A stretch of DNA of 64,000 nucleotides. Source: Pristiophorus japonicus (lineage: Eukaryota). Location of the stretch: assembly GCF_044704955.1 (NCBI RefSeq), contig NC_091984.1, forward strand, positions 177,816,001 through 177,880,000, read 5' to 3'. The position numbers and the translations under genes are program-made. Below, one piece after another: positions 5,238-45,639 of this stretch. The notes under the pieces are model-generated. The model worked only from the letters and a program-made list of their open reading frames with translations, made no database searches and was not told the origin of the DNA. Numbering within the stretch: position 1 is the first letter of the stretch; every line of letters starts with the position of its first letter.

Positions 5238-6104
5238 GTGAGTAAAAACATTTCTGCTACATAATTCAATGTGTTGCAGGCTAAGAGCAAAATACTGCAA
5301 ATGTGGCATTTTATTTTGAAGCAATTTCAATTTGCTTTCAACAACTAAACCGTGCTATCAATTTATATGGTACAATGCTAGCCCGCTACCCAGGGTAGAA
5401 CTGAGTCTTCCAATTTCAGAAGGTGTTCAGATTAATGAGTTCGGGGCGAGTTTTGTTTTGCGCGGAGCTACTTTATCTCAGCTACAATACAGAGTGTATC
5501 ATAGCCTAGTTTGCTGATGATACAAAGATGGGAGGAAAATCAATGTGTGAGGAGGACACAAAAAAATCTGCAAAAGGACATAGACAGGCTAAGTGAGTGG
5601 GGAAAAGATTGGCAGATGGAGTATAATGTTGGAAAGTGTGAGGTCATTCACTTTGGCAGAAAAAAAATCAAAGAACAAGTTATTACCTAAATAAAGAAAA
5701 ATTGCAAAGTGCCGCAGTAACACGGGACCTGGGGGCACTTGCGCATGGAACACAAAAGGATAGTATGCAGGTATAGCAAGTGATCAGGAAGGCCAATGGA
5801 ATATTGCCCTTTATTGCAAAGGGGATTGAATATAAAAGCAGGGCAGTCTTGCTACAGTTATACAGGGTATTGGTGAGGCCTCACGTGGAATACTGCATGC
5901 AGTTTTTGTTTCCATATTTACAAATGGATAGACTTGCTTTGGAGGCAGTTCAGAGAAGGTTCACTAGGTTGATTCCGGAGATGAGGGGGATATTTATGAG
6001 GAAAGGTTGAGGAGGTTGTGCCTCTACTCATTGGAATTCAGAAGAATGAGAGGTGATCTTATCAAAACCTGTAGCATTGTTGTTGCTTATCTAAGGGTTA
6101 AGTC

Positions 6105-7038
6105 ATGGCAGGACAGCTCGGTCACGTGTTATGCTCCTCCTGTACCATGTGGGAACTCAGGGACGACACCAGTGTTCCTGACGACTACATGTGCGGGAAG
6201 TGTATCCGCCTCCAGCTCCTGACGGACTGCGTTGCGGAGTTGGAGCTGAGGGTGGATTCACTCTGGAGCATCCACGATGCAGAGAATGACGTGAGTAGCA
6301 CGTGTAGCGAGTTGGTCGTACCGCAGGGAAAGGGTCCACAGCCAGATAGGGAATGGCAGACCAGCAGGAAGAGCAGTGCAAGGAAGGTAGTGCAGGGGTC
6401 CCCTGTGGTCATCCCCCTGCAAAACAGATACACTGCATTGGGTACTGTTGGGGGGGATGACTCATCAGGGGAGGGCAGCAGCAGCCAAGTTCATGGCACC
6501 GTGGCTGGCTCTGTTGTACAGGAGGGCAAGAAAAAGAGTGGGAGAGCGATAGTGATAGGGGATTCAATTCAGGCGTTTCTGCGGCCGCAACCGAGACTCC
6601 AGGATGGTATGTTGCCTCCTTGGTGCAAGGGTCAAGGATGTCTTGGAGCGGGTGCAGGGCATTCTAAAAAGGGAGGGAGAACAGCCAGTTGTCGTGGTGC
6701 ACATTGGTACCAACGACATAGGTAAAAAAAGGGATGAGGTCCTACGAAACGAATTTAAGGAGCTAGGAGCTAAATTAAAAAGTAGGACCTCAAAAGTAGT
6801 AATCTCGGGATTGCTACCAGTGCCATGTTCGAGTCAGAGTAGGAATCGTAGGATAGCGCAGATGAATACGTGGCTTGAGCAGTGGTGCAGCAGGGAGGGA
6901 TTCAAATTCCTGGGGCATTGGAACCGGTTCTGGGGGAGTTGGGACCAGTACAAACAGGACGGTCTGCACCTGGGCAGGACTGGAACCAATGTCCTAGGGG
7001 GAGTGTTTGCTACTGCTGTTGGGGAGGAGTTAAACTGA
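6105..7038 (+). pseudogene. CR1 ORF1 (zinc finger/leucine zipper plus SGNH esterase), frameshifted near 6570
   Basis: CSSC..CGKC plus heptad leucines, then GDS, HIGTND and DGLHL motifs in ORFs 6105-6725 and 6604-7038. Confidence 0.88.
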
Positions 7039-10019
7039 TATGGCAGGGGGATGGGAACCAATGCAAGGAGACAGAGGGAAACAAAAAGGAGACAAAAGCA
7101 AAAGACAGAAAGGAGATGAGGAAAAGTGGAGGGCAGAGAAACCCAAGGCAAAGAACAAAAAGGGCCACTGTACAGCAAAATTCTAAAAGGACAAAGGGTG
7201 TTAAGAAAACAATCCTGAAGTCTTTGTGTCTTAATGCAAGGAGTATCCGTAATAAGGTGGATGAATTAGCTATGCAAATAGATGTTAACAAATATGATGT
7301 GATTGGGATTACAGAGACGTGGCTCCAGGATGATCAGGGCTGGGAACTCAACATCCAGGGATATTCAACATTCAGGAAGGATAGAATAAAAGGAAAAGGA
7401 GGTGGGGTAGCATTGCTGGTTAAGGAGGAGATTAATGTAATAGTTAGGAAGGACATTAGCTTGGATGATGTGGAATCTATATGGGTAGAGCTGCAGAACA
7501 CCAAAGGGCAAAAAACGTTAGTGGAAGTTGTGTACAGACCTCCAAACAGTAGTAATGATGTTGGGGAGGGCATCAAACATGAAATTAGGGGTGCATGCAA
7601 TAAAGGTGCAGCAGTTATAATGGGTGACTTTAATATGCACATAGATTGGGCTAACCAAACTGGAAGCAATACGGTGGAGGAGAATTTCCTGGAGTGCATA
7701 AGGGATGGTTTTCTAGACCAATATGTCGAGGAACCAACGAGGGGGGAGGCCATCTTAGACTGGGTGTTGTGTAATGAGAGGGGATTAATTAGCAATCTCT
7801 TTGTGCGAGGCCCCTTGGGGAAGAGTGACCATAATATGGTGGAACCTGCATTAGGATGGAGAATAAAACACTTAATTCAGAGACCATGGTCCAGAACTTA
7901 AAGAAGGCTAACTTTGAAGGTATGAGGCGTGAATTGGCTAGGATAGATTGGCGAATGATACTTAAGGGGTTGACTGTGGATGGGCAATGGCAGACATTTA
8001 GAGACCACATGGATGAAGTACAACAATTGTACATTCCTGTCTGGCGTAAAAAATAAAAAAGGGAAGTGGCGCAACCATGGCTATCAAGGGAAATCAGGGA
8101 TAGTATTAAAGCCAAGGAAGTGACATACAAATTGGCCAAAAATAGCGGTGAACCCGGGGACTGGGAGAAATTTAGAACTCAGCAGAGGAGGACAAAGGGT
8201 TTGATTAGGCAGGGAAAATGGAGTACGAGAAGAAGCTTGCAGGGAACATTAAGACGGATTGCAAACATGTCTATAGATATATAAAGAGAAAAAGGTTAGT
8301 AAAGACAAACGTAGGTCCCCTGCAGTCAGAATTAGGGGAAGCCATAACGGGGAACAAAGAAATGGCGGACCAATTGAACAAGTACTTTTGTTCAGTATTC
8401 ACTAAGGAGGACACTAACAACCTTCCGGATATAAAAGGGGTCAGAGGGTCTAGTAAGGAGGAGGAACTGAGGGAAATCCTTATTAGTCGGGAAATTGTGT
8501 TGAGGAAATTGATGGGATTGAAGGCCGATAAATCCCCAGGGCCTGATGGACTGCATCCCAGAGTACTTAAGGAGGTGGCCTTGGAAATAGCGGATGCATT
8601 GACAGTCATTTTCCAACATTCCATTGACTCTGGATCAGTTCCTATCGAGTGGAGGGTAGCCAATGTAACCCCACTTTTTAAAAAAGAAGGGAGAGAGAAA
8701 ACAGGGAATTATAGACCAGTCAGCCTGACATCGGTAGTGGGTAAAATGATGGAATCAATTATTAAGGATGTCATAGCAGCGCATTTGGAAAGAGGTGACA
8801 TGATAGGTCCAAGTCAGCATGGATTTGTGAAAGGGAAATCATGCTTTACAAATCTTCTGGAATTTTTTGAGGATGTTTCCAGTAGAGTGGACAAGGGAGA
8901 ACCAGTTGATGTGGTATATTTGGACTTTCAGAAGGCTTTCGACAAGGTCCCACACAAGAGATTAATGTGCAAAATTAAAGCACATGGGATTGGGGGTAGT
9001 GTGCTGACATGGATTGAGAACTGGTTGTCAGACAGGAAGCAAAGACTAGGAGTAAATGGGGATTTTTCAGAATGGCAGGCAGTGACTAGTGGGGTACCAC
9101 AAGGTTCTGTGCTGGGGCCCCAGCTGTTTACACTGTACATTAATGATTTAGACGAGGGGATTAAATGTAGTATCTCCAAATTTGCGGATGACACTAAGTT
9201 GGGTGGCAGTGTGAGCTGTGAGGAGGATGCTATGAGGCTGCAGAGCGACTTGGATAGGTTAGGTGAGTGGACAAATGAATGGCAGATGAAGTATAATGTG
9301 GATAAATGTGAGGTTATCCACTTTGGTGGTAAAAACAGAGAGACAGACTATTATCTGAATGGTGACAGATTAGGAAAAGGGGAGGTGCAATGAGACCTGG
9401 ATGTCATGGTACATCAGTCATTGAAGGTTGGCATGCAGGTACAGCAGGCGGTTAAGAAAGCAAATGTCATGTTGGCCTTCATCGCGAGGGGATTTGAGTA
9501 CAGGGGCAGGGAGGTGTTGCTACAGTTGTACAGGGCCTTGGTGAGGCCACACCTGGAGTATTGTGTACAGTTTTGGTCTCCTAACCTGAGGAAGGACATT
9601 CTTGCTATTGAGGGAGTGCAGCGAAGGTTCACCAGACTGATTCCCGGGATGGCGGGACTGACCTATCAAGAAAGACTGGATCAACTGGGCTTGTATTCAC
9701 TGGAGTTCAGAAAAATGAGAGTGGACCTCATAGAAACGTTTAAAATTCTGATGGGTTTAGACAGGTTAGATGCAGGAAGAATGTTCCCAATGTTGTGGAA
9801 GTCCAGAACCAGGGGACACAGTCGAAGGATAAGGGGTAAACCATTTAGGACCGAGATGAGGAGAAACGTCTTCCCCCAGAGAGTGGTGAACCTGTGGAAT
9901 TCTCTCGCACAGAAAGTTGTTGAGGCCAATTCATTAAATATATTCAAAAAGGAGTTCGATGAAGTCCTTACTACCAGGGGTTCAAGGGGTATGGCGAGAA
10001 AGCAGGAATGGGGTACTGA
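7039..10019 (+). pseudogene. CR1 ORF2 (APE endonuclease plus reverse transcriptase), disrupted
   Basis: LNARS, ITETWL, YRPP, GDFN, SDH; DFQKAFD, GVPQGSVLGP, FADD. Split into ORFs 6882-7901, 7856-8056, 8066-8284, 8218-9393 and 9406-10065. Confidence 0.92.
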
Positions 10020-11244
10020 AGTTGCATGTTCAGCCATGAACTCATTGAATGGCGGTGCAGGCTAGAAGGGCCGAATGGCCTACTTCTGCACCTATTTTTC
10101 TATGTGTCTATGTTTCTATGAAACGTGTAAGATTATGAGGGGGCTTGACAAGGTGGATGCAGAGAGGATGTATCCACTGATAGGGGAGACTAGAGCTAGG
10201 GACATAATCTTAAAATGAGGGGCTGCCCATATAAAACTGAGATGAGGAGGAATTTCTTCTCTCAGAGGGTTGTAAATCTGTGGAATTCGATGCCTCAAAA
10301 AGCTGTGGATGCCGGGACATTGAATAAATTTAAGACAGAGGTAGACAGTTTCTTAACAAGGGAGTAAGGGGTTTTGGGGAGCTGGCAGGAAAGTGGAACT
10401 TAATCTATGGTTGGAGCAGCTATTATCGTATAAAATGGCGGAGCAGGCTCGAGGGGCTGCATTGCCTACTCCTGCTCCTATTTTTTATGTTCTTATGTTC
10501 TTATGTACAATGGCAAGTCGCTTCAGAATCTTTGTGTCATAATGCGGGGAAGCCAGTAAGGACCTCTAATCCTATCGCAATCGAGTGACCTCGCTGGAAA
10601 ACACACAGTGTGGATTTCCGTTCGTTACTGGAGCGAGCTTAGTAGTTGTGTATTCCGTCCCCAAGAAATACCTTGCCGAAACGCACCGCGTATTGGCACA
10701 AATGAATGATAACCACTTGCCGCAGATACCTGAGAGGATGGGCGTCGAGGGATATTGCACCGCATCAATTCGCTCTTCAGGACGCCCAATAGATGGTCAA
10801 AATTAGTGGTAAATCTAGCCTCCAATGCGCTACGTTCTCAGCTCCCTATTAGTGTTTTGCCTTGAACTATTGTTGCACTGAATATAACGGCTCTAAAGTA
10901 CAACTAATGTTCAGTCGGTATGCTGATTTAAACTGAACGCAAGTAATGAATGGCACTGCAACGGACAAAGCGAAGCACTCATTTATTGCGCATTGACAAT
11001 TGCGGTGCGCCCTCAGACATAAGGCAGAAAAACTGAACTGCGTTCAGCAATCTCTGCTGAAGTGTATGCGGGTTTATACTTAGAATGGCGTATCATTTAT
11101 TCCCTCATCTGTTCTGCAATATCCGATGGGAAAACTTAACGTGATCAGCTGTTAAATTATTTTTATTTTGCTTGAACTATTCACAGTGTTAGATTAATGT
11201 CTTGTGCCTGGCACATGCGTGCTAAAGACCAAAGGCTCCTTTGC

Positions 11245-11700: not shown

Positions 11701-12550
11701 GTGAGGTTTTTCAATGGCTGTTGAAATCTGAGCTGAGTTATTTCTATGCAGGATCCAGTAATCAGAGAAGGCAGATTGCGACTCAAAGAAGCGATTGCGC
11801 TATTTAATAGTGTTGAGCATATATATGCCAAATCAGGTACAGAATGCAAATAAAGCGAGGGCAAGAACGATTGGAGAGAGAGAAGGTAAAAGGGACAGAA
11901 ACAAAATGTTAAAAAATTACTTGTAAATCTCCAAGTATAATTAAAATCGGAAGAAATGAGACGCCATCACTAGTAAACGTTAATTGTCAGTGCCAGAGAG
12001 ATTGTTTGACAGTAATTAAGACTTACAGTGCTGTTAAGGGAATCCTTATATCGGAATGGACAAGCCCTAACTTTTCCATAGCAGTTTACTTTCTATCTAT
12101 GAGTTCAGTACAACAATTTCACGCAGTACAATGTATCATGAATGGGGAGGGAGAGAGCGGGATGCGGTTTTTGGGAAGTTTTTGAAGGAGCGTCGCATCT
12201 TGAACAACAACTTGCTTTCCGCAAATTCCGCATGTGCGCTCACAAGAAGTTGCTGTCCGATGTTCGCGGACATAACGATGACTCTGATTAGCCTCACAAT
12301 TATATCTACAGCAAAATCTGGGCCATAATGTATTCACTTTTTATGCTGGAACCAAACTCGCACATTATCTTTTAGCGCCAACCCTTGTTTAGGCATAAAT
12401 GTAATCTTAAATATTCTATAGAAGCAGTGTGAGCGCGCATTGTGTAGGCATTGACTTAGCACGATAGTGTGAGACGGCTGATTGTGAGTCGGCAGGGAGT
12501 TTACATGGATTTTACTTGGACTGACGCAAAATGTCTTTATGTAAAAACAG

Positions 12551-12873
12551 ATCCGCGGGCACTCTCGGTGACCGTCCTTCCGCCTTCATCGGATCAAATC
12601 GCAGCGAAGAACAGGGCGATCCTGGTATGGTTGGTGAACGGCTTTAACCTGGGCGCTGCGGAGAATGAGTGTACTGTAGATGGCAGTGTGAGAGGGAATG
12701 GTGTTGAGACCAGTAGGATGCAGCAGGAGACCGACAACACATCCAGTGTGAGCAGTTATCTGACTCTGCCAGCCTCAGAGTGTAACTCGCACGTGCTTTA
12801 CTCCTGTGTGGTTAAACACGAGACTCAGGCAAACCCGCTTCAAACAAGCATCGCCAGATCCAGCTGTGTCTGA
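12551..12873 (+). pseudogene. Cluster 1 lambda constant exon
   Basis: Acceptor ACAG at 12547-12550. PRALSVTVLPPSSDQIAAKN..GVETSRMQQETDNT.SVSSYLTL..YSCVVKHE..SIARSSCV*. Frame is open, but the first Cys is Trp and the core Trp is Cys. Confidence 0.93.
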
Positions 12874-17760: not shown

Positions 17761-17890
17761 AAATAAAGGAATATATTTATTTAAACAAACTTACAGAATA
17801 CTTTCCACAACATGCACCTTATCTTGGCTTAGTTCCGTGCATAGGTATATGCAACATATATGATCGTTCCTTCATTTCATCCTGGATATT

Positions 17891-18444
17891 TGTTTTGGAT
17901 CAATAATAATAGGCCCAGGTTCGGGATCTGGATGAATGTTAAATAAGGGACAAGACAAATGAAGTAAAGAATAAAACATCGTTTACTGAGAGAAAAGAAA
18001 CATTAATAATACAGTTTACAAAGAAATGAGAAGTATGATAAGATGCAACAACGCTCACGGCCTTCCGCCCGTCGGGAACTCCACAAGCGATGGCTGGTCT
18101 GGAGCATTGGGGGTCCCGGCACCGCTCGCGAATCACGGTCCAAGGTGAAGTTCAAAGAGCTACGGGACAGTGCAGTACCTTTATACAATCAAATAAACAT
18201 ACTATTGAACAAAACATGGGTGCATGTGGCTTATGGCCAACTCCTAATCTGTAAGGCCCCAGGTGCTTGTCCACAAAGCATGAGACCTCGAGCCACGGAC
18301 CGTCTCCAAACTAGCTGGTGTGCATCTCAAGGTTGCATTTCCTCTCTCTCTCTAGCAACAACATTCACGAGGCATGAAGCAGAGACACAATGTAAATGAC
18401 TAAATATCATAATTAACCCTATATTATTAACCCTATACAATACA
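17891..18444 (-). repeat. 3' LTR (554 bp)
   Basis: About 93% identical to 25263-25813 by manual count. Minus-strand TATAAA near 18183 and AGTAAA at 17982-17987. Confidence 0.95.
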
Positions 18445-18454
18445 ATCCACCCTT
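18445..18454 (-). other. Polypurine tract
   Basis: Minus strand AAGGGTGGAT directly precedes the TG of the 3' LTR. Confidence 0.75.
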
Positions 18455-18468
18455 GATATTTAGACATT

Positions 18469-20432
18469 CTATGTAATATAATCAATTTGAAGGTGTAATG
18501 CATCAGTTACACGTTGAGTATATGCAAGCAACGCCCGCAATCTACACCAAAGAATACATACAAACAGTAACGCGACAAGTAAAACAACAATAGGATGTAT
18601 TAACAGCTTCAAAGCAGCGGATGTTTTTAGGGACCATCCGTAAAAAATGTCCCACCAATGGTGTACCGTAAGGTCAGTGACTGTTGTTGCAAATCTGACC
18701 AAGGTGCCTTCACTGTAACTCATAGCAACTTGCAGAGTATGAAGCATACACCCTCAATTTGCTCAATTCATCAGTGACCTTTTGATTATCTTTTAGAAAT
18801 TCAGCTAAATGAGTTAGGTCTGCAGTGGGAGGAAGGTTAGTAATGCCTAGGACGGTGCGATGGTGCACAACATTTTTCCATCGTCCTAATTGATATGACC
18901 TTTTAGAATGAAGGTCATATATGGTATACACATATTTAAAACAAGCATTTAGAGGAGGATCTTGACGGGCGCCGTCAAGATAAATGGGATAGACACTAGT
19001 AATACAAACATGATTCTGTCCAATTTCATGTAAAATTGTATCATTGTATGGTACAAGTGTCCAAATACATGGTCCCGCTGTATGCTGTAGGGAGCATGGT
19101 TCAAACACAGGTGTGTGCAAAGGACACATGATACCGAAGGACCATATTTGACAATTTTGAGCTTAGTGAGTTCTATTGCTAGTATCAATCCATCCACCTT
19201 GAACTCGGGTACCCACAGATTTTGGCCATACAGATGGGGAAGCACTATAAACTGGCACCAAGTGTTGGTTTTTGTGATATTGACTATTCTCATAATAAAG
19301 TTACACCGCTGGTCATCACAATGTGTATGTTGCATATCAGGTTTTACCCCTAGATTTCTATTGCCGAAGTGGAATATTTTGCTCCAACTATTTGCATACC
19401 CTGACAGGGCAATACGTTCTAACTTGGCCCTTAATAGCTGCCGGGTTATTTCTTCAAACATGCATTGTGTGTGATGACCTAATTCTTCTTGTCACCCGGT
19501 AGCACTCCCTATCTCTTGAATAGTTTTAACTATGTGTTCCCATCACATTATGTCCAACAGCCAACTAGAAAACATCTGTTCTATGAGACCTCTGTCCCAT
19601 GCATTTCGCAATCGAATTGCATCTCCAGTGAGTCTCCCTACCTTTTGTATTTTGTTTTGTAAGGTCTCGATATCCATAGAGTTTAATGGTCCAATCCCCG
19701 TTCCTACTCCTCCTAATATTGTGGCTAATATATTACGCCTTTGTCTTACTAACATTTTCAGATTTGCTTTAATTGTTGCTATATTACAAGTGTCAGACGG
19801 CCTGTCCGCATACCGGACTTGTAGTGTGAGACTCAATATGGGTGGGGATGTAACCACAGGTGTACATGTAGCGTGTAGTCGTTGCAAATGATCCATGGGG
19901 CTCTTAGAATGCTTAACTACAGGCATTGACCAAAAGTGGCCTATAATTCCCCTACCAGTGATTTCAGAGGCATTTTTACATCCATACCATAGAGACGCAT
20001 TTAACTTAATTTCGCCTGACATAGTGTCATTGCTTGATGTAACGCTGCGGGCCCAACTCCTTAACCACGTGGCGTTGTGCAATAACGACAGATTGGGGTG
20101 CATATTGGAAGTCATTGTCATATCTTTTTGCCACTTGATTGATAACGTGATGCTGGCCCCTGTGCTTACTGTTAATAGCACCTGTCCTGGGCCTCCCCAG
20201 TACCCGAATGCATCACAAGTGAGCTCCAGTATCCTATAGTGCAGGCTTGCCTGGTAGGACAGGTAAAATTGTCTTGTGTACGATCAGTGTTAACTAACCG
20301 CCATCCTATACGGCCATCCCATGCTGTGCTTGAGGATGGAAGTAGCACAGTCAAAGATAACGAGACACAGAGACTGGCCAGCACGAGTTGGTAAGTCACC
20401 ATTTTGGGCAGAATTCCTTTGGGACGAAACAT
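18469..20432 (-). pseudogene. env: ERV env (about 650 codons, frameshifted)
   Basis: Signal peptide LVLASLCVSLSLTVLL. Furin site RQRR (19746-19735), then fusion peptide NILATILGGVGTGIG. HHWWDIFYGWS, TM helix LLIHPIVVLLVALLFVCILW and a short tail. Confidence 0.88.
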
Positions 20433-20445
20433 AAGTATGTTAATT

Positions 20446-23400
20446 TCAGCCTCGTTTAGTCAATTTACCCTTGTCAACACAGAGAGGAATATCTTGACCA
20501 GTCAGGAGCACCCAATAATGTTTCCTTCTCCTTTCGCGAAGAATTCCCCTGCTTGAAAGATTTTCAGGGGGTACTGCACCCACACTTTTCCTTCTTCCCA
20601 AACTGTGTCCTGAGTCTGATTTTCTTTTTCAATAGTAGGGACACTAACTTTGCCTAACATGTGGCTTATGGGAGTTCCCCCCGCAATGGTCGGTGATTCA
20701 GATTGTGCACTGCGTGTGGCAAGACCTTTAACTACCCTTGCAATATGTTAGTGGGAGTTAATATTTTAATCTGTTGCTTAAGTAATCCATTCATGCGTTC
20801 TATTAACCCTGCAACTTGTGGATAGTAAGATATGTGAAACATCCAATAGATCCCGTTGTCTATCGCCCACTGTTGCACTGTTTGACCTGTGAAGTGCGAC
20901 CCATTATCGGACTGTACTTCTGCTGGCTCACCGTAGTATGTGATTAAATTCTCTAGTCCTTTAATCGTACTTTGTTGATTCGCTTTAGTCACTGGATAAG
21001 CTATCAAAAGCCCAGAATAGGTATCAACAACAGTGAGCAAATATTGGAACCGTTGTTGCAATGGTAAAGATCCTACATAATCAACTTGCCATATTTGTGC
21101 TAGTTGAGTCTCTCTCTTAATATGGGCACCGGTTTTCCATTGTCGGGGAAAATGCTTCCCCTTTTGACAAATTTCACAGGTGTTTATGACCTGTTTAACA
21201 CCGTCCGTAGTCAAATGTAACCACCTATTTCGTGCCCATTGTATCGTACCCTGAATGCCCAAATGTCCAGATTTATGGTGGGGCCACTTGCCTATGCCAT
21301 ATTTTTCCTCTTCTGCCTTTTTTACAGCCCGCACCCAGGCTATATTATCAACGGTGTTATTATATTCAGAGGTCTTCGAAGTGTTTTTCCTGTGAGCGTC
21401 CACATGATATACAGTTATTTTCATCTTCTGGGCTTTGGACCATATTTGTTCCCATAGGTGCTTTCCCCACAAGTCTTTCCCAGTTATTTTCCAGTTATGT
21501 TCATGCTAGTTTCGCATCCAGCTCGCCATGCCATTGGCTACTGCCCATGAGTCAGTATATATGTGTACTTGTTGCTGTTCCTCTTCTAACGCAAGGACTA
21601 CAGCTGCTAGTTCTTCTAGCTGGCTGGAGCCTCTCACACCTTCATCATGCACAATTGTCTAGGTTTTTGGATTGAAGGTAACGGCTCCCCATTGCCGAAG
21701 GCCGTTTCGCCAGACCACTGAGCCATCTGTGAACCAGGCATGGCTACGCTCTTCAGGTGTTAACTGTTCAAAAGACACGCCCCACAAGATTGGTGACTCC
21801 TGCGTTAAACTGACAGATGACTGTGCAAGTTCACTCTCAGCTGTTTGTGGGTATTCAGCCACATGCTCATGTCGTCGGGTGATTCCTTCTTTTCCTTTAC
21901 TTGCTCTGTCTGCGATATACCATTTTCAGCGCACTATGGAGCTCTGCTGCGCTCACTCTGTGTGTCTCATTTTCTGAGAGAACCCAGGATAATATGGGTA
22001 GGTCTGGCCTTAAACTGACTTTGTCGTCCCCTGTCTGTCCTTCTGTTTCTGTTAGGGCCGAATAACATGCTAATAATTGTTTCTCAAATGGAGTGTAACG
22101 AGTAGCAGATTCTGTCAATTTTCTAGACCAGAACCCTAACGATATATGAATGCCATGTTGAACCTGCCACAAACTCCATACTGCAGTATCATTGGTAACG
22201 GATACTTGTAGCTCAAAAGGCTGTCCAGGCACTCGCGGGGCTTGGGGTAAAGCTTGAGCTACGGCTTTTTTGGCTGCATTAAAAGCCACCTGTTGTTCCT
22301 TTCCCCACTCGAAGTGGGCCTTTTTATGTGTTACGGCATACAGTGGTTCTAATAACATCGTGAGGTGAGGTATGTGTCTCCTCCAGTAACCTAATAGTCC
22401 CACGAACCGTTGTGTCTTAGTTTTATTCGTGGGGGTGGCCATTTCTTGAATTTTATTCTTCACAGGCTCGGGTATGATGCACTCCCCAGAGACCATTGGA
22501 TCCCAAGAAACTGGACATTCTGGCTAGGGCCTTGTACCTTCTTCGAATTTATCTCCCAGCCCCTGTCTCGCATGTGTTGGACTAAAATAACTAGGGCTTC
22601 TGACACCACTGCCTCGGTAGGACCCTGATTAGTGCATCATCGATGTAATGTGCCAGTGAGACGTTAGGAGCCAAAGTGCACATGTCCAGGTCCCGGGCCA
22701 CCAAACCATGGCATAGGGTAGGGCTATGTAGGTAACCATGAGGTAGGCGTTTAAACATGTATTGCCTTCCTTCCCAAGTGAATGCAAACTGGTCCTGGGA
22801 TTCTTCCTCTATTGGAATGGAGAAAAAGGCATTTGCCAGGTCGCTTACTGCAAACCATTCCGCACCTTCTTCAGACAGCCGCTCTGTTATAGTTAATACA
22901 TCTGGGACAGCGGTTGCCAGGGGAGGGCCAAATTTGTTCAGTTGTCGGTAGTCCACAGTCATCCTCCAACATTTGTCGGGTTTCTGCACAGGCCAGACAG
23001 GGCTATTGTAGGGGGACACCACATGTCTAATGATACCCGCTTCCAAGAGCTCTTGTATGGTTTCCCCTATTTCTTTGTGTCCTCCAGGTATTCGGTACTG
23101 TTTCATAGTCAGTATACGCGATGGCCGTGGTATTACCACTGGTTCCCACTTTGCTTCCGCTACAATCACAGTGATCGCCCGTATCCAGAATGAGAATCGC
23201 CTGAATGAGGTGCTGTGTGTGGTTCCCTTTAAAAGGTCCATCCCAATAATATGTTCCTTTACTGCCTATATTAAGACCATTACCCAGTGTGGAGGCCCAT
23301 TTCCCAACGCCATTCTGATATTTGTTCGGACAGCGGGCGTTTCTGCCCCTCCAAACCCATTAATCATCATACGGGTCCCCGTGTGTTTCTTAGGATTTCC

Positions 23401-23563
23401 ATGGAAAATAGTAACTTCTGCTCCTGTGTCTAGTAAAGCCACATCTCTTTGTATGTTCCCCTCCCCGCCAATGTATCATAATCGGAATGTGTGGCCTCAG
23501 ATCTCGAGGAGCTTGGGTTGATCTGGTTCTAACGGGGGATACTCCCGGATCCCAGCCACAACC
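20446..23563 (-). pseudogene. pol: ERV pro-pol (protease, RT, RNase H, integrase), disrupted, no dUTPase seen
   Basis: DLRPH..IHW, ALLDTGAE; WRMTVDYR, DLANAFF, YIDD; WFTDGS; HHKSGH..CEIC, WQVD..SDNG..IERMNG. Confidence 0.93.
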
Positions 23564-25233
23564 CTAGTCGAGGGGATTACGAGCTTTCCACAGCTCTTCT
23601 ACGTTGGGGTATAGGTTAGCGGGAGATGGTTTCTCCACAACCGCTGACTTTTCGCTATCCGACTTAGTCTCCTTTCACCCTTCTCTGTTCCCGGGACGCA
23701 GTGTTGCTTCCACATAGAATACATCGCTCCTGTTGGGATTCCATCAATTTTTCCCTTGGGGACCCCTGCCTTTAGTAAAGCCGTGAACATGTCCAGTCGC
23801 ATAAATCTTTTTTTTGTCTTTCCTGACCCTATATCTTTCCCAGAGGTAGAACCTTGACACTGGTTCCGATCCCCCTCTACATTAGCCATTCTTGACTCTC
23901 GCACACTATCTTCTGCATCCTCTAACTGTCCTAACAATAGGCAAGTGTGCCCCACTCGCTGCCCTTGGGCTGGTCCCAATAATGCGAGTAGCGCACCCCT
24001 CATCATAGGAGGGCCACTCTTCATCAGCCTGCTCCGCATTCCTGCCGTAAAGAGCTCCGGATATGGCCCCTCATATTGTTGGTGACATGTTCCTCCCTGT
24101 GTTGCCATGTTGCGCAACTGTATCGCACCCTCTGCCATAGTATTCCAAGGTTTTACCTCCCCTTCCCAATCAATGGCAGAGGGATATTTTTCCCGGACCC
24201 GGATAGTAACCATGTCCCATAGCGAACCTGTGCCCTGGACATTCCGTAGCACTGTTTTGATATGGTGGTCCGTAGTCATAGTCCCCATTTTTGTTAATTC
24301 TTCGGGGTTAAGTATTATGCCTGATGCTCCCTGGTCCCAAATCCGGGTTAGCCATTCTGACAATGATTTCCCGGGTTTTTGACGAAATCGAGACCCTATT
24401 TCTTGTAACTCACTAGTGGTGAAGTCACGCACCCCTCAAGTGGTTACCGGCTGTTCCCCATCTTGCTGTTTCATTTTATTTGTCATAAGGGGTCTAGCTT
24501 CCGTGCCCGGAGTGTATGGATGAGGGTCTTTAATTTCCTCCCGTTCCCCCACCTCTCCATCTGTCCATTCATAGTCTGAGTCAAAGGAGTACCAGATATT
24601 TTTGGTGCACCACCCACAATTTTTTCCAGCTTGTATACATTCCCCTCATGATTCTGCATTGGCTTTTAAACACTCACTGGGGTCTGATTGAGCAATTGCA
24701 AACCACATGCAGCAGTAAATCAGTGCCATACAAAGGATATATTTCAAATTCATCTGTAATTTGTATCGCCTGGCTTTCTTTTTATTTTGTACTGTCGCCA
24801 GATGGCATATTAAAGCTTCTGATTGTTCACTGAACTTATCCGCCCGTCCTTGTGCAGTGCGGACCACTTCAGTCAGGGTCGCGTTTTGAATTTCCAAAAC
24901 CTTAACAGCTGTTTTTAACTGTAGGTTTTCTGCCTCACTTTCCTTAAATTGTTTACACATCGCCCTTAAGGCTATCAACAAAACCCATCCCATTTGTGAG
25001 GGACGATTTTTCTCCTGTGGGAAGCTCGCTTCCTCCAGGAGAGAGAGTACCGCGTGGAGTACGGCTCTATCTTTGTTCTGTTCCAATAACGGCGTATCCC
25101 CATGTTGCGCAGGTCCAAACCGGGCTAGCACCTTGACAAGAGAGCCAAAACTCTCATCCCTCGTGCCCCACCCTGGTATTCTATACTTCTCTCCCGCAGG
25201 AGGAGACTGCTTCTTGTCTTTTCTCTTAAACAT
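23564..25233 (-). pseudogene. gag: ERV gag (ERV-L/Fv1-type), two premature stops and a late frameshift, carrying a host insert
   Basis: Starts MFKRKDKK. CA-like FTTSELQEIGSRFRQKPGKSLSEWLTRIWDQG, then LLKAGVPKGKIDG. No Cys-His knuckle. Ends ..NPLD TAG at 23566-23564. Confidence 0.9.
24598..24753 (-). pseudogene. itgb1: Captured, intronless 5' fragment of integrin beta-1 (signal peptide plus start of PSI domain) inside gag
   Basis: [51 protein letters not shown] versus recalled human ITGB1 [51 protein letters not shown]. The only lesion is Cys>TGA at 24648-24646. Confidence 0.93.
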
Positions 25234-25241
25234 TTTACCAG

Positions 25242-25259
25242 ATCCTGTTCGTGACGCCA
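25242..25259 (-). other. Primer binding site, tRNA-Ser
   Basis: The plus strand reads ATCCTGTTCGTGACGCCA, matching the recalled 3' 18 nt of a vertebrate tRNA-Ser(CGA). It lies 3 nt from the 5' LTR. Confidence 0.85.
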
Positions 25260-25262
25260 AAA

Positions 25263-25813
25263 TGTTTTGGATCAATAATATAGTCCCAGGTTCGGGATCT
25301 GGATGAAAGTTAAATAAGAGACAAGACAAATTAAGTAAAGAATAAAACACCGTTTACTGAGAGAAAAGAAACATTAATAATAAGTTTACGAAGAAAAGAG
25401 AAGTATGATAAGATGCAACAACACTCACGGTCTTCTGCCCGTCGGGAACTCCACAAGCGATGGCTGGTCTGGAGCATTGGGGGTCCTGGCACCGCTCGCG
25501 AATCACAGTCCAAGGTGAAGTTCAAAGAGCTACGGAACAGTGCTGTACCTTTATACTATCAGATAATCATACTATTGAACAAAACATGGGTGCATGTGGC
25601 TTATGACCCACTCCTAATCTGAAAGGCCCCAGGTGCTTGTTCACAAAGCATGAGACCTCGAGCCGCGGACCGTCTCATAACAAGCTGGTGTGCGTCTCAA
25701 GTCTGCTTTCCCTCTCTCTCTCTAGCAACAAGGTCCACGAGGATGAAGCAGAGTCACACTGTAAATGACTAAATATCATAATTAACCCTATATTATTAAC
25801 CCTATACAACACA
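25263..25813 (-). repeat. 5' LTR (551 bp)
   Basis: Pairs with 17891-18444 and is followed by the PBS on the minus strand. TATAAA at 25555-25550, AGTAAA at 25358-25353. Confidence 0.95.
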
Positions 25814-25859
25814 ATATTGGAGACTTTTTGGTATTCTTTTATCGCTAATTGAAAAGCAT

Positions 25860-26913: not shown

Positions 26914-28735
26914 CATCATCATAGGAAGTCCCTCCGGATCGATGAAGACTTGCTTCCACTCAACATGAGTTCTTTGGTGGCTGTACAGTCCAATACGAAA
27001 ACCACAGCCTCTGTCACATGTAGAACAGATCGTCATTGAGGGAAGGGGTGGGTAGGACTGCTTTGCCGCACGTTCTTTCTGTTGCCTGCACTTGATTTCT
27101 GCATGCTCTCGATGACGAGACTTGAGTTGCTCAGCACCCTCCCAGATGCACTTACTCCACTTAGGACAGTCTTTGGCCAGGGACTCCCAAGTGTCAGTGG
27201 GGATGTTACACTTTTCAGAGAAGCTTTGAGGGTGTCCTTGTATTGGTTCCGCTGCCCACCTTTGGCTCGTTTGCCATGAAGGAGTTACGAGTAGAGTGCT
27301 TGCTTTGGGAGTCTCGTGTCTGGCATGTAAACTATGTGGCCTGCCGAGTGGAGCTGATAAAATGTGGGCAGTGCTTCAAGATTAGGGATGTTGGCCTAGC
27401 CGAGGACGCTAACGTTGGTGTGCCTGTCCTCCCAGGGGATTTGTAGGATCTTGCGGAGACATCATTGTTGGTATGTCTCTAGCGACTTGAGGTGTCTGCT
27501 GTACATGGTCCATCTTTCTGAGCCATACAGGTCAGCGGATATTACTACAGTCCTGTAGACCATGAGCTTGGTGGCAGTTTTGAGGGCCTGGTCTTCAAAC
27601 ACTCTTTTCCTCAGCCAGTCGAAGGCTGCACTGGCGCACTGGAGGCGGTGTTAGATCGCACCTTCAATGCTTGCTCTTGTTGATAGCAGGCTGCAGAGCT
27701 GTGGCAAGTGGTCCACGTTTTCCAGGGCCCCGCCATGGATCTTGATGACTGGGGGGCAGTGCTGTGCGGCAACGACAGGCTGGTCTTACTGATATTTGTC
27801 GTAAGCCCCATGCTTTCGTACGTCTCAGTAAATATGTCGACTACGTCCGGGAGTTCAGCCTCTGTATGTGTGCAGACGCAGGTGTCGTCCGCTTACTGTA
27901 GGTCAACGACAGAGGTTGGGTTGGTCTTGGACCTGGCCTGGAGATGGCGAAAGTTGAACAGGTTCCCACTGGTTCTGTAGTTTATTTCCACTCCAGTGGG
28001 AAGCTTGCCGACTGTGAGATGGAGCATGGCAGTGAGGAAGATTGAGAAGAGGGTTGGGGCGATGACACAGCTCTGCTTGACCCCAGTCCGGACATGTATT
28101 GGGTCTGTGATGGATCCGTTAGTAAGGATCACAGCCTGCATATCGTTGTGGAGCAGGTGGAGGATGGTGATGAACATTTGGGGGCATCCGAAACAGAGGA
28201 TACGCCATAGACCCTCGTGGTTGATAGTGTCAAAGGCCTTTGTAAGGTCGAAGAAGGCCGTGTATAAGGTCTGGCGCTGTTCCCTACATTTTTCCTACAG
28301 GTTTCACGCTGCAAAAATCATGTCCGTTGTGCCCCATAGGGGACGAAATCCACTCTGTGGCTCCGGGAGGAGCTATTCGGCCACAGGGAGAAGACAGTTG
28401 AGGTGGACTCTAGAGATGACTTTCTCAGTGGCTGATAGCAGGGAGATTCCTCTGTAGTTGCCGCAGTTGGTCTGGTCCCCTTTTTTAAAAATTGTCATGA
28501 TGACTGCATCTCTGAGATCTCCCGGCATGCTGTCCTTCCGCCAGATGCGGGAGATGAGGTCCTGTATTCGTGCCAACAGTGCCTCTCCACCATACTTCTG
28601 TGCCTCAGCAGGGATTGCATCTGCACGTGTAGACTTTTTGTTTTTAAGCTGTCTTATGGCTTTTTCTACCTCGTGCAGTGTTGGCATCTTACTGAGGTGG
28701 TGGTGGGTAGCATGCTGCGGGATGGAGTCGCAGAG
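26914..28735 (-). mobile_element. 5'-truncated RTE-clade LINE
   Basis: EVEKAIRQLKN, NYRGISLLS and GVKQSCVIAPTLF motifs, (ATG)n tail, TACCT flanks at 26909-26913 and 28736-28740. Absent from the paralogous site near 60160. Confidence 0.88.
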
Positions 28736-39500: not shown

Positions 39501-41731
39501 GCAGAGTTAGCATGGTTTTATGAACGGGAAATCATGTTTGACAAATTTGCCGAAGTTCTTTGAGGATATAACGAGCAGGGTGGATAAAGGGGAACAATTA
39601 CCTGTCGTGTATTTGGATTTGCAGAAGGCATTCGATAAGGTGCCACATAAAAGATTACTGCACAAGATAACAGCTCAAAGATTTGGGGGTAATATATTAG
39701 CGTGGATAGAGGTTTGGCTAACTAACAGAAAACAGAGTGTTGGGATAAATGGGTCATTTTAAGGTTGGCAAACTGCAGATGACACAAAGATTAGTGGGAA
39801 AGTGCGTTGTGTAGAGGACACAGAGAGGCTGCAAAGAGATTTAGATAGGTTAAGCGAATGGGCTAAGATTTGGCAGATGGAATACAATGTCGGAAAATGT
39901 GATGTCATTCACCTTGGAAAAAAAACAGTAAAAGGGAATATTATTTGAATGGGGGGAAATTACAACATGCTGCGGTACAGAGGGACCTGGGGGTCCTTGT
40001 GCATGAATCCCAAAAATTAGTTTGCAGGTGCAGCAGGTAATCAGGAAGGCGAATGTAATGTTGGCCTTTATTGCGAGAGGGATGGAGTACAAAAGCAGGG
40101 AGGTCCTGCTGCAACTGTATAGGGTATTGGTGAGGCCGCACCTGGAGTACTGCGTGCAGTTTTGGTTACCTTTCTTAATGAATGATATACTAGCTTTGGA
40201 GGGGATACAGAGTCGATTCACTAGGCTGATTCCGGAGATAAGGGGGTTACCTTATGATGATAGATTGAGTAGACTGGGTCTTTATTCGTTGGAGTTCAGA
40301 AGGATGAGGGGTGATCTTACAGAAACATTTAAAATAATGAAAGGGATAGACAAGATAGAGACAGAGAGGTTGTTTCCACTGGTTGGGGAGACTAGAACTA
40401 GGGGGCACAGCCTCAAAATACGGGGGAGCCAATTTAAAACCGAGTTGAGAAGGAATTTCTTCTCCCAAAGGGTTGTGAATCTGTGGAATTCTCTGCCCAA
40501 GGAAGCAGTTGAGGCTAGCTCATTGAATGTATTCAAATCACAGATAGATAGATTTTTAACCAATAAAGGAATTAAGGGTTACGGGGAGCGGGCGGGTAAG
40601 TGGAGCTGAGTCCACGGCCAGATCAGCCATGATCTTGTTGAATGGCGGAGCAGGCTTGGGGGTTAGATGGCCCACTCCTGTTCCTAATTCTTATGTTCTT
40701 ATGTTCTTATGTAACTAGTGGGGTGCCACAGGGATCAGTGCTGGTGCCTTAACTATTTAAAATCTATATTAATGACTTGCATGAAGCGACCGAGTGTAAT
40801 TTAGCCCAATTTGCTGATGATACAAAGATAGGTGGGAAAGCAAGTTGTGAGGTAGACGTAAATAATCTGTAGAGGGATATAGATAGGCTAAGCATTTGGG
40901 CAAAAATTTGGCAAATGGAGCATGGGAAAATATGAGGTTATCTTGGTATGAAAAATAAAGAAACACATTATTATTTAAATGGAGAGAGATTACAAAATGC
41001 TGTGGCACAGAGAGATCTGCGGGTCCTTGTACATTAAACACAAAATGTTGCCATGCAGGTAGAGCAATTAATTAGGAAGGCACATGGAATTTTTACCTTT
41101 ATTACAAGGAGGATGGACTAAAAAAGTAGGGAAGTCTTGCTACAACTGTAAAGGCGTTGATGACGGCACACGTGGAATACTGCGTACACTTTAGGTCTTC
41201 TTGTTTAAGGAGGGATTTACTTGCATTGGAGACAGTTCAAAGAAGTTTCACGAGGTTGATTCCTGAGATGAGGGGTTTGTCTTATGAAGAAAAATTGATC
41301 AGGCTGGGCCTATACCAACTGGAGTTTAGAGGAATGAGAGGTGATCTTATTGAAATATAAAAGATACTGAGGGTGCTTGACAGGGTTGATGCAGAGAGAA
41401 TGTTTCCCCTCGTGGGGGAATCTAAAACTAGGGGGCATAGTTAAAGAATACGGTTCGCACATTTAAAATAGAGATGAGAAGAATTTCTTCTGTTAAGTGT
41501 CGTGAATCTTTGGAATTCTCTACCCCAGAGAACTGTGGAAGCTGGGTCTTTGAATATATTTAAGGTGGAGGTAAACAGATTTTTGAAATATAAGGGTGTC
41601 AAGGTTTATATGGAGCGGGCAGGGAAGTGAAGCTGAGGCCAAGATCGTATCAGTCATGATCATACTGCGTGGCGGAGCAGCCACAAGTAACCAAATGGCC
41701 TACTCCTACTCTTTTTTCTTATGTTCTTATG
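36572..41731 (+). mobile_element. Full-length but decayed CR1 LINE with 5' UTR
   Basis: ORF1 MAGQEMFCSCNCSIW..C plus VHVGTND, endonuclease from ~37970, RT (LDLQKAFDKVPH), (TTCTTATG)n tail. Confidence 0.88.
39776..40711 (+). mobile_element. Younger 5'-truncated CR1 nested in the CR1 above
   Basis: The host sequence GGCAAACTG|TAACTAGTGGGG is split. Clean ORF 40022-40609 and its own tail. Confidence 0.88.
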
Positions 41732-43825
41732 TAGGAGCACGCCGAGAAGGAGGAGCATGAAGTGGACGAGGAGGAGCTGGAGGAACTGGAAGAGGAAGAA
41801 AAGCAAGAGGTGGAACATGAAAAGGAAGTGAGGCTGCAATGTAGACAGCCTGTGACTGCACGAGCTCTGCATGATCAAATAATTAATGAACGATACCAGC
41901 AACCTCAAACACAACTCTCGATTCGCCACACTCCTTGCCTTTCCTGTTACTGATCACACCACCCGCTTTCCCAATAAAGCATAAATAAAGGCCAATACAA
42001 AATACACATTCCCGTACTAATGTCTAATTAAATCATGACATATTGCATACCAAAATATAATAATCACTCTTGTGTACTCCCTTAGTGCCCCTTTCATGTA
42101 TCTTTCATTTTCCTATTGGTTCTGCAAAGTCTTTCCACAATGGATATAGCATGGCTGGTGGAGAGCTGCTGACTTTCACTTGAGAAGACTACTGATGGCA
42201 TTGGAGCACAACCTCGAGCAGCTCTCAGACTAGAAGGGCCGGCGTCAGACTCTGCCATCTCTGTCTGGGCTGCAGGAATTTGGGCTTGCTGGCTGACATT
42301 TAACAGCAACGACACTGGTGGAGTGGCAGTGGAAGGAGAACGAATGCTTTCGTCCTGTGAATCGTACATCATGAGCAACAGTCAATCTTCCGTGGTGGAG
42401 CCTCAGCAATCCTACTAATCTGTTGGAGAAACATTTGCTGGAATGCTGTGACTCCCTAAAAGCCCCTTTGAACACAATCCATATTCATGATGGCAGCACT
42501 GTGAGTTTGATTGGTAGCAAATTGAAGTTGCACGACATCATTCTGATCTTGCATGGCAGCAAACTGACATTGTATGACAGCACAAAGCCCTGTGTCAAGT
42601 TGGTGCTGGACGCCTACATTGTCCTTGACATTGAATGCATGCTTTCCGGCAGGGTTCCTGTGCACCAAGTATTTGTATGTTTATAATCTTCAGCCTTCTT
42701 CTGTAGCCTGACACATCGAAGTCCTCATCTGACTTGTCTGCAGCAAAATGAGTTCATGATCTCGGCTTCTGGTGAGCTGGCACCTACCCTGGCTCCTGCG
42801 CACTTGTGCCTGGCATCTCACATATTTTTAATCTATCCTATCCTCTGAACTCCATGCAGTGCCAGTAAGTGAGCTGGTGATTGTGACTGTAAGATTGAGT
42901 AACAGTGTCTTCTTCCTCTTCCTTCAGTGTCTGGGCAGGTTCCAGCTCTTGAATATTTGAAATGAAAAATGGACAGGTTTTGGGTTATGTTAATGGGATA
43001 GGAGAAAGTAAGGAATGCATGCTTACACCCTCTGCAGCTTCTGATTCATAATTGATTGAGGTATGTGAGAGAAGATGAAATAAAGACAATTAGGTATGCA
43101 GTTACTGTCATCATCAATTGCTTCAGCCCCGCCCGTGGTCAAACATCAGTGATGCCCCATCCCATGAAGGCCAGCACTTTCTCCACCTTGGGGGAAAACT
43201 TGCAAGCTCACTTGTCACCCTCCATTTAATTTCTATTGTCTCCTCTTAAGCGCCACCTTCTCCTTCAAGAAAGAGTGAAGTTTTTCAGTGAGTATCGTGG
43301 AATCGGCTTGGCTGATGTGGCAGTCATGGTTTAATGCCTGCCAGTGTGTGCGAGCTTTGAAATGTGGGTATGATGGTTGCAACAGTGCTAAGTGTGTGAG
43401 GGTCATGTAAAGCATATGAATGTAGGGAAGAGTCCTGATTGATAGATATTGTTGGTAGATGGGAGTAACTAGGCTATATGGCACAGGAACAGACCAATCG
43501 TCCCAAACAATCCATGCCGAAATCAGTGTGGGAACGTAATGAATTGAGCAAAGGATGAGGCCAATGCTACAGTTGGTAGAATGTGCCAATTAGAAGGTGA
43601 ATTCACTGACCTTGACAACTGCCATTCCTTCGTTTCCCTTTCTCATCTTTCTTAAATAAATATATTTCCTTTAATCTAAAGCCATTTTTCACACTGTCAA
43701 TGGCAATCGCCCTGATACAACATTGAAGGGCAGGTGGGATCATGACAATCCACACAATCAATGCAACTCATGCGAGTTGTTGTGAGCATACGAGAAAAAG
43801 AACTTCAGAAACGACAGCCACTGTC

Positions 43826-44636
43826 AATTTATTTCTGAGAAGTGTGAGGTAATTCATTTTGGAAGGGTTAACAAGGCAAGGGAGTAAGCAATAAATGGTA
43901 CCACACTGAGGAGTATAGAGGAACAAAAGGATCTCGGAGTGTATGTCCACAGATCCTTGAAGGTGGCAGGCCAGGTAGACAAGGTGTTTAAGAAGGCATA
44001 TGGAATGATTGCCTTTGTTAGCCGAGGCATAGCATACAAGAGCAGCGAGGTTATGCTTCAATTATGTAAAACACTAGTTAGGCCACAGCTAGACTACTGT
44101 GTGCAGTTCTGGTCAGCACATTATAGGAAATATGTGATTGCACTAGAGATGGTACAGAGGAGATTTACGAAGATGTTGCCTGGACTGGATAATTTTAGCC
44201 ATGGGGAAAGATTGGATAGGCTGGGGTTGTTTTCTTTGGAACAGAGGAGGCTCAGCCGAGACCTTATTGAGGTGTATACAATTATTAGGGGGTCTCGATA
44301 GAGTGGATAGGAATGACCTAGTTCCCTCAGCAGAGGGGTCAACAACCAGGGGGCATTGATTTAAGGTAATAGGTAGGAGGTTTAGAGGTAATTTGAGGGG
44401 ATATTTTTTCACACGGAGGATAGTGGGGGTCTGGAAATCATTGGTTCAAACGGTGGTAGAGGCAGAAACCCTCACCACATTAAAACGTACTTGGATATGC
44501 ACTTGAAGTTTCCTAACCTCCAAGGCTTCGGACCAGGAGCTGGAAAGTGGGATTAGGCTGGATAGCTCTTTGTCGGCCAACGGGGACACGAGGGGGGTCG
44601 AATGGTCTCCATCCATGCTGTAACATTCTATGATTC
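43826..44636 (+). mobile_element. 5'-truncated CR1
   Basis: ORF 43939-44301 LVRPQLDYCVQFWS; ends in TTCTATGATTC. Confidence 0.85.
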
Positions 44637-45639
44637 GGTGATGCACACCTCATCTTGTTAGCATCACATCCCTATCAGAAGTCATTCACTCTTCTAGTCT
44701 AAGTGCAATTTGATTAAAGTTACAACTCATACTACTGCCAAAGAAAATCATAATACATTATACAGAAAGCTACAGTAAAAATCTAAGCTCCCCCCAAATA
44801 CAACCATATTATCAAGAAATCATCCCCTTAACTTAAAAGATTCCCGCAGCACTCATTTTACCGTTTCCATCTGATAGATCATTCTGAGTCAGTACTCCTT
44901 CTCTCTAGCACTCAATTATACCAATATATGTCCTTTTCTACTGACAAATATTAAGGTGTTTAACTCTATTTTGATATTTTCAGTCATTTGTTCTGAAGAA
45001 TTCTGCACTTTTCTTCATCACGTTTTACTTTCTGAAAGAGCAGAGTTTGATGCAACAAAGCATGGAACGCAGAACAGTAGACTTGACTGTTCAAGATGGC
45101 ATTCTGCGCAGCGTGATAGTTCAAAAGATTGTCTTGCAGATTTTTTAGAAGGCTAACTACCACGTCACTTTCGAAGATTTAAGGTTTGAGGTGAAATATA
45201 AAGACAGCTGCCTAGCTATGCTTTGAAAATCAGTGGGAAACTGTCGGCAACATCTTACGCTGCAGCATCAGCATGTTGGAAACATTGCACTAAGAGAAAG
45301 GGAAAAGTACCACTAGCTGGTCTTTGCCATCGAGAATGGCATCAGCAGCCATTAAAAAGTGAAAGCATGAGACAGACCAGAGGCATACTAAAACGAAGCT
45401 ACGAAAGATTTCAACTAAAAATTAGCCCCTCAGTCTCCGAAATCCGAATAATTTGGCCATGCTGAGTTTCGATTTGTAGGACTGACCATCACCGCAACCT
45501 CTTGGCCCCAATACTGAAATAAGAGTCACCACAAAGCAAATATTTTGATGCAACTTTATACATCAATCTATCCAATATTACATCAAGAAATCAACTAATT
45601 AATCTTGTGCATTCCCTAAGTAACTGTCTGATGTGCGCA

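Follow-up and report, generated by a model that had tools for sequence, protein, structure and literature searches.

An exon-exact, in-frame piece of spliced integrin beta-1 inside gag of a high-copy endogenous retrovirus family in a shark

Acutely transforming gag-onc retroviruses carry host coding sequence fused to gag. Two such cases, v-src and v-sis, are treated in a review (PMC13297096). A second route is LTR-mediated retroposition, in which host mRNA replaces part of an open reading frame of the element and microsimilarity is present at 25 of 29 fly junctions (PMC5131818); the same text mentions that human FAM8A1 was captured by an ERV. In crocodilians, CrocERV29 carries KIT-ligand in 9 copies and CrocERV31 carries nectin3 in 6 copies, both under purifying selection (PMC4299795). 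Mouse circRFWD2 pseudogenes are flanked by LTRs and number 33+9 copies, and the report states that their mechanism is not known (PMC4897178). Most known captures are laboratory or tumour isolates or consist of a few old copies. The family described here keeps the donor gene, the parent virus and hundreds of descendants in one genome, so that direct tests can be made of which template was used, how the junctions formed and what became of the fragment.

The window, the whole stretch of 64,000 nucleotides of Pristiophorus japonicus that was analysed, contains a minus-strand provirus of 7,923 bp (17891-25813), in which the order is PBS, gag, pro-pol and env-like region (Table 1). We take its primer-binding site to be of the tRNA-Ser type. 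The broken region behind pol is presumably env, by its position and by a motif; it had no match in a Pfam search, and its motif was found at 266 loci of the genome with two or fewer mismatches, compared with 6 for a control. The gag of the window copy has in-frame stops at 24646-24648 and 24433-24435, of which the former is private to this copy (1 of 30 copies compared). The two LTRs differ at 36 of 551 sites, which would correspond to an age of ~35 to 85 million years at rates from 1e-9 (assumed) to 3.9e-10 (a crocodilian rate quoted in PMC4299795).

Table 1 Features of the provirus in the window and of the donor exons in the host genome.
Feature	Position	Strand	Remarks
Target-site duplication, 5' copy	25814..25818	-	5 bp, identical on both sides of the provirus
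5' LTR	25263..25813	-	551 nt, TG...CA; 515 of 551 aligned nt the same as in the 3' LTR
Primer-binding site	25242..25259	-	18-mer opening TGG, 3 nt past the LTR
gag, N-terminal 160 codons	24754..25233	-	ATG 9 nt past the PBS; ~93% identity to insert-less sisters
Captured itgb1 exon 2	24684..24753	-	70 nt; start codon and signal peptide; begins exactly at the host acceptor
Captured itgb1 exon 3	24598..24683	-	86 nt; PSI domain, first half only; last base exactly at the host donor
gag, spacer and capsid-like part	23599..24597	-	Frame unchanged; stop at 24433-24435
pro-pol, split over several frames	20502..23475	-	Pfam RVT_1 3e-14, RT_RNaseH_2 1.6e-11, rve 4.7e-20
Presumed env-like region, broken	18469..20283	-	From ORF translations; basic cleavage-like site, then hydrophobic peptide
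3' LTR	17891..18444	-	554 nt; purine tract directly before
Target-site duplication, 3' copy	17886..17890	-	Matches the 5' copy
Host gene A, exon 2	C5:250040921-250040852	-	70 nt
Host gene A, exon 3	C5:250035448-250035363	-	86 nt; 5,403 nt from exon 2

The RT was closest to foamy-virus Pol in PDB (E 2e-24), and the bit scores, which rank similarity only, were 89 for foamy Pol, 79 for MLV, 64 for a HERV-K-type entry and <50 for HIV. The capsid-like frame had an Fv1 cluster as its top match in the ESM Atlas (0.93, a lead without an E-value), followed by retrotransposon gag clusters; neither Pfam nor PDB gave a match for this part of gag. Because the RT is nearest to foamy-virus Pol and the capsid-like frame is nearest to the Fv1 cluster, the provirus fits, by sequence likeness, a class III-like (spuma-like) virus, in line with the class III assignment of a preliminary description made from the letters of the window. 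Elsewhere in the window, many copies of dispersed repeats, 60-93% alike, were seen at 5554-10357, 39584-46328 and 56890-59592, which we take to be LINE-like, and two more repeat pairs lie at 27212-28495 and 54179-55477 and at 12545-12844 and 52326-52625.

Inside gag, 52 codons on the minus strand (24753-24598) are placed in the gag frame between ...RYKLQ and IWYSFDS.... They are, to the base, two exons of itgb1 joined together, exon 2 with 70 nt and exon 3 with 86 nt, 156 nt in all, and intron 2, which measures 5,403 nt in the host gene A, is gone. With X at the stop, the translated insert matched residues 1-50 of integrin beta-1 in PDB (E 3.8e-11), and other integrins far more weakly (beta-8, E 0.0017; beta-2, E 0.05). 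Against the Pfam family PSI_integrin it reached E 6.6e-5 over positions 2-24 of 47, a score under the curated cut-off because only half of the domain lies in the insert. In the host genome the window insert matched exons 2 and 3 of itgb1, with 63 of 70 nt the same in exon 2 and 83 of 89 nt in exon 3 (3 flanking nt counted). The frame, the PDB match, the absent intron and this genome match bear out what the preliminary description had claimed, namely an in-frame itgb1 piece without intron in gag.

Two itgb1-like genes are present in the genome, both on contig C5. Over 30 copies, the exon 2 part of the insert has a mean identity of 96.9% to gene A versus 71.4% to paralogue B, and paralogue B was ruled out as the donor on exon 2 (71% versus 97%), exon 3 being non-discriminating. 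In gene A, 51,525 nt separate the captured pair from the end of exon 1 upstream and 11,112 nt from the start of exon 4 downstream, and bases of exon 1 or exon 4 were found in the insert at none of the 30 loci. As for the two genes themselves, they are arranged head to head (A at C5:250.01-250.09 Mb, minus strand; B at 250.27-250.32 Mb, plus strand), and their exon 3 is 98.8% identical, compared with only 74% for exon 2; the likeness of exon 3 suggests, from the sequences, gene conversion. In gene B, residues are altered at positions that we take to be the beta-I domain's metal-binding motifs. Among shark proteins, four 'integrin beta-1-like' entries of 626-699 aa are without the cytoplasmic and tail Pfam domains of the 797-aa forms, and these short proteins may represent a paralogue that, like gene B, is truncated or secreted.

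Insert-less sister copies define the viral stretch that was replaced as 69 nt, or 23 gag codons; the earlier claim that host sequence replaced gag codons holds, and only its number, about 20, has to be corrected. No poly(A) or target-site duplication, which together would have indicated later retroposition, was present at the insert edges of the window copy or of the 30 loci. There is very little doubt that a single event swapped 69 nt of gag for the spliced exons 2 and 3 of gene A in frame, and that the chimera, multiplying in the germline next to a parent form without insert, came to account for about half of the family. In this sense the locus is the germline fossil of transduction of a cellular gene that had been proposed, with spliced itgb1 sequence captured and fixed in the germline.

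To describe the family, the insert was searched against the genome, giving 288 candidates, and the 40 of these that were scored had 92-100% identity over nearly the whole length. The same two gag junctions were seen in 30 of 30 insert-bearing loci examined. An exact 25-nt pattern over the 3' junction occurred at 79 loci on 22 contigs, and the same gag motif with another preceding base at 149 loci; when 20 of those 149 were sampled, 18 had the 69-nt gag stretch in place, one had a deletion over the 5' junction, one had an unrelated flank, and none had the insert. The pattern for the 5' junction occurred at 252 loci, and the 100 of these that were listed comprised 52 insert-bearing and 47 insert-less copies and one assigned to neither. 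The insert is carried by about half of the gag copies of the family. Insert-bearing loci number at least 79 and probably, by an estimate that allows for decay, 200-290. The preliminary description of one provirus with an itgb1 fragment is correct for the window copy; the fragment is a trait of the family, not a single case.

The gathering and alignment of family copies that had been called for was carried out on 30 insert-bearing loci, chosen by likeness to the window copy, and 20 others. Identity was 92-93% both within and between the insert-bearing and insert-less forms. A tree of the gag flanks, calculated from 47 of the 50 loci (two were dropped for rearranged flanks and one for length), was star-like, with terminal branches of ~3.5% and no well supported branch. 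The insert labels were clustered on this tree (6 changes versus 14.1 when shuffled), yet they formed no supported clade, and it is from the identical junctions, not from the tree, that we infer a single origin of the insert-bearing form. The copies diverge from the host exon by 3%, similar to the terminal branches (3.5%), suggesting that the capture took place just before or early in the burst. Separately, three matches of the env motif on contig C20 (82619962, 82695954 and 82772002) are spaced by 76 kb, which suggests a tandem segmental duplication that includes a family copy.

Junction-bridging contigs were also found in other samples. In run X5 the 5' junction is bridged by record 13 and the 3' junction by records 10 and 11, and run X7 has a contig over the 3' junction that extends 31 letters into the insert. 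Both runs contain host itgb1 with exons 1-4 joined and are therefore probably RNA, although their contigs show neither strand nor level. Run X6, which has another species label, gave two contigs only, one of them the insert-less form. Record 19 of run X7 (641 nt, depth 99), which covers 24429-24628 of the window, passes over the 3' junction and exits the provirus at 24429 into unrelated sequence; it is either a deleted copy or a chimeric transcript. Protein searches returned only ordinary shark and ray ITGB1 (7 matches among 43 candidates of 299-952 aa) and no match among 24 shorter candidates, with no chimeric protein among the entries returned, a result of little weight because the same database gave no gag of this ERV family either.

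The two junctions differ in what they share with the host. At the 5' junction the replaced viral stretch agrees with five of the first six nt of exon 2, as 0.4% of random position pairs would, three of the four nt upstream also agree with the true end of exon 1, and an AG upstream is shared with the ends of both exon 1 and intron 1; the crossover lies within a 4-nt window that takes in the exon boundary. At the 3' junction the host sequence goes as far as the donor site of exon 3. Here the viral side matches none of the first three nt of exon 4 and differs from intron 3 at the first nt already, and it agrees with the first 2 nt of exon 2. A crossover 2 nt inside exon 4 followed by deletion was considered and rejected, as the searches contained no intermediate. 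Ends that coincide with exons in the absence of viral splice sites do not agree with the usual model of capture from linear mRNA, and suggest that circular RNA or splicing intermediates served as templates.

Our preferred reading, to which as a whole chain we give a probability of roughly 0.45, combines two template switches, a back-spliced circle of exons 2-3 and a passenger moved in trans. The capture would have occurred during minus-strand reverse transcription, and the host template would most likely have been the circle, in which the start of exon 2 comes after the end of exon 3, so that nascent DNA leaving the viral RNA could meet the 2-nt match. RNase H would open the circle behind the enzyme and the template would be exhausted after one lap (154-156 nt), which could explain why the insert is exactly one unit long; the enzyme would then return to the viral RNA at the 5-of-6 match. 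The resulting Gag, minus a conserved motif and plus a hydrophobic signal peptide, would probably be a passenger, and the chimeric RNA, with LTRs, PBS and often pol and env, may have been moved in trans by the proteins of the insert-less form.

The circle is favoured because it is the only template that offers a match at the viral 3' side, and both ends of the insert lie on host splice sites (70+86=156 nt). The LTR-flanked circRFWD2 pseudogenes of mouse are a precedent (PMC4897178). Against it, the match goes on for only 2 nt beyond the presumed back-splice joint, which chance would give once in 16 cases, and the entry point must still land on that junction (~3% of positions). The introns flanking exons 2-3 (51.5 and 11.1 kb) contain 13 inverted repeat matches versus 15 direct ones, and since the direct matches are as many as the inverted, we regard these repeats as background. 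A backward joint of exon 3 to exon 2 was not seen in the assembled contigs searched, whose library type is not on record, and the human circITGB1 described in PMC9242654 covers other exons. With a little more reserve, the family may be read as a datable germline fossil of a retrovirus that reverse-transcribed a circular RNA of its host and went round it exactly once; the parent virus, the donor gene and both switch points would be preserved, and the product would have been amplified to some 200-290 loci. If so, it would supply the mechanism missing for circRNA-derived pseudogenes, and exon-exact, one-lap inserts would be predicted in other ERV families.

A template switch on linear RNA is the first alternative, and we consider it rather improbable. 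In this case either a mature itgb1 mRNA happened to break just where exon 3 ends, or a splicing intermediate of exons 1-3, whose 3' end is free once the first step at intron 3 is done, allowed an end-to-end jump, and the enzyme returned at the exon 2 microhomology. Linear mRNA far exceeds circles in abundance, and a linear template offers even better homology at the 5' side (4 nt perfect and 8 of 10 at the end of exon 1; 10 of 12 at the end of intron 1). Switching on linear RNA is also the standard mechanism in LTR-mediated retroposition, where 4 of 29 fly junctions had no microsimilarity (PMC5131818). However, a linear mRNA needs two splice-site coincidences (~1e-4 by rough estimate, before the lack of homology is counted), and it gives no reason why the viral 3' side should agree over 2 nt with the beginning of exon 2. 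Splicing intermediates with a free 5' exon are transient and nuclear, which disfavours the second version.

It is unlikely, for other reasons, that splicing itself made one or both junctions. A provirus in intron 3 could have trapped exon 3 on a cryptic gag acceptor, after which one switch brought back the 5' leader; alternatively or in addition, a provirus in intron 1 could have spliced a gag donor into exon 2. Exon-exact ends would then need no coincidence, and the viral 5' context, CAG, is a good exon end. Variants with GT at the 5' end of the replaced stretch (2 of 47 insert-less copies) and with the G of AG before the 3' junction (3 of 100) do exist among the matches listed, but the usual state of the family at these ends is AT...AC and the GT and AG variants occur at the rate expected from ~3.5% random decay; canonical viral splice sites were rejected as the family state. 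The genome pattern search contained no copy with the 69-nt gag stretch cleanly cut out, and none with extra exon 4 bases at the 3' junction. No family remnant was found in introns 1-3 of gene A (51.5 kb, 5,403 nt and 11.1 kb; 200 nt N); a somatic insertion, or one that has since been lost, would however not be visible there. The pyrimidine share upstream of the 3' junction is 0.45, and because the acceptors of host introns 2 and 3 are likewise pyrimidine-poor (0.55 and 0.50 by our measure), this argument against a viral acceptor is weakened. The replaced 69 nt were also considered as a minor-class intron, and rejected: AT...AC would be chance, and hybrid introns would be needed. What we take to be the U12 donor and branch motifs are absent from this stretch.

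That the chimeric frame was useful, as a membrane-anchored or secreted Gag like glyco-Gag or as a dominant-negative Gag, and so drove the rise to half of the family, seems to us quite unlikely. The replacement keeps the reading frame, 24 of 30 inserts have no gaps or stops, the three differences from gene A that are common to 29-30 of 30 copies are all synonymous, and the junction-bridging contigs come from two runs that contain spliced host itgb1. On the other hand, these fixed synonymous differences may be changes in the host gene, and shared non-CpG variants are 1 synonymous to 6 non-synonymous in the insert and 10 to 34 in all of gag, with a neutral expectation of 19-27% synonymous for the insert. 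Purifying selection was seen neither on the insert nor on gag, in a comparison of low power because the tree is star-like and the copies were picked by likeness. Half a PSI domain would be unlikely to fold. In a crude count, 0 of 30 copies were open from the gag start to 74 codons beyond the insert.

Large capsid deletions have spread along with the insert: of 29 copies, 4 share a deletion of 84 nt, 6 one of 332 nt and 2 one of 371 nt, each at different loci, and linkage at p<0.01 was seen for 28 of 946 variant pairs. These recurring deletions and linked variants show that there were several rounds of spread in which gag-defective forms were moved in trans. Full-length elements exist in both forms, since the env motif lies downstream at no fewer than 8 of 52 loci with the insert and 13 of 47 without it (p=0.15), which a useful frame would also allow. 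The likeliest account is that the chimera is a passenger complemented by its insert-less parent. Finally, an assembly artefact or chimera, or a later L1/LINE insertion into one resident provirus, can be dismissed with hardly any reservation, because the junctions are identical at all 30 loci and exactly matched at the 79 on 22 contigs, contigs from two other samples bridge them, and the event is a replacement at many loci, not an insertion, with neither poly(A) nor duplication.

These results mean that a capture that damages gag is able to reach half of a family. They also mean that more than 100 itgb1-like sequences have been left in the genome, possibly transcribed and able to mislead both annotation and the mapping of reads.

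Compared with known systems, the shark capture works like LTR-mediated retroposition: the family shows an intronless piece, replacement within an ORF, LTRs with a target-site duplication, and secondary mobilisation. In that process, as in the shark, a partial intronless host mRNA takes the place of part of an element ORF, both LTRs are kept, microsimilarity is present at a junction, and the chimeras spread secondarily and are often in frame (PMC5131818). There, however, breakpoints fall anywhere, whereas both lie on splice sites in the shark family and the 3' one is without homology to linear RNA; and about one in two of its several hundred gag copies is chimeric.

The CrocERVs are likewise non-mammalian germline ERVs that amplify captured host mRNA while insert-less relatives coexist, and one of the genes they captured is a cell-adhesion gene (PMC4299795). 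They differ in that whole ORFs lie between pol and env or replace env, compared with a 52-codon fragment inside gag, and in their 9 and 6 copies under purifying selection, compared with the shark's at least 79 copies and no selection seen. The circRFWD2 pseudogenes resemble the shark insert in being multi-copy, without poly(A), made of exons from exon 2 on and flanked by LTR elements (PMC4897178). High-confidence circRNA pseudogenes keep a long reversed exon junction; the shark insert, which is confined to the exons of the putative circle at 30 of 30 loci, has at most 2 nt of it, shared with the virus, and would rank as low-confidence. In contrast to circRFWD2, its parent element and both switch points are known.

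With gag-onc viruses the shark family shares the in-frame fusion of host sequence to gag and, probably, dependence on a helper. Unlike them, it has no signalling domain, gag resumes past the insert, some of its copies retain pol and env, and there is no sign of selection and no evidence of disease. The insert holds no growth-promoting domain, only a signal peptide and PSI positions 2-24 of 47; the chimera is not a gag-onc analogue in function, and the likeness drawn in the preliminary description is not supported on this point, nor by any purifying selection seen. That description also knew of no precedent. In the literature searched, from which subscription journals are mostly absent, neither capture of an integrin nor any ERV capture in cartilaginous fish was found. 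For the kind of event the description goes too far, since reports of genes captured by ERVs, class III-like ones of reptiles among them, have been published (PMC4299795, PMC5131818). ERV gene capture as such is thus known, and what the shark family adds is a capture that is exon-exact, internal to gag, in frame and of high copy number.
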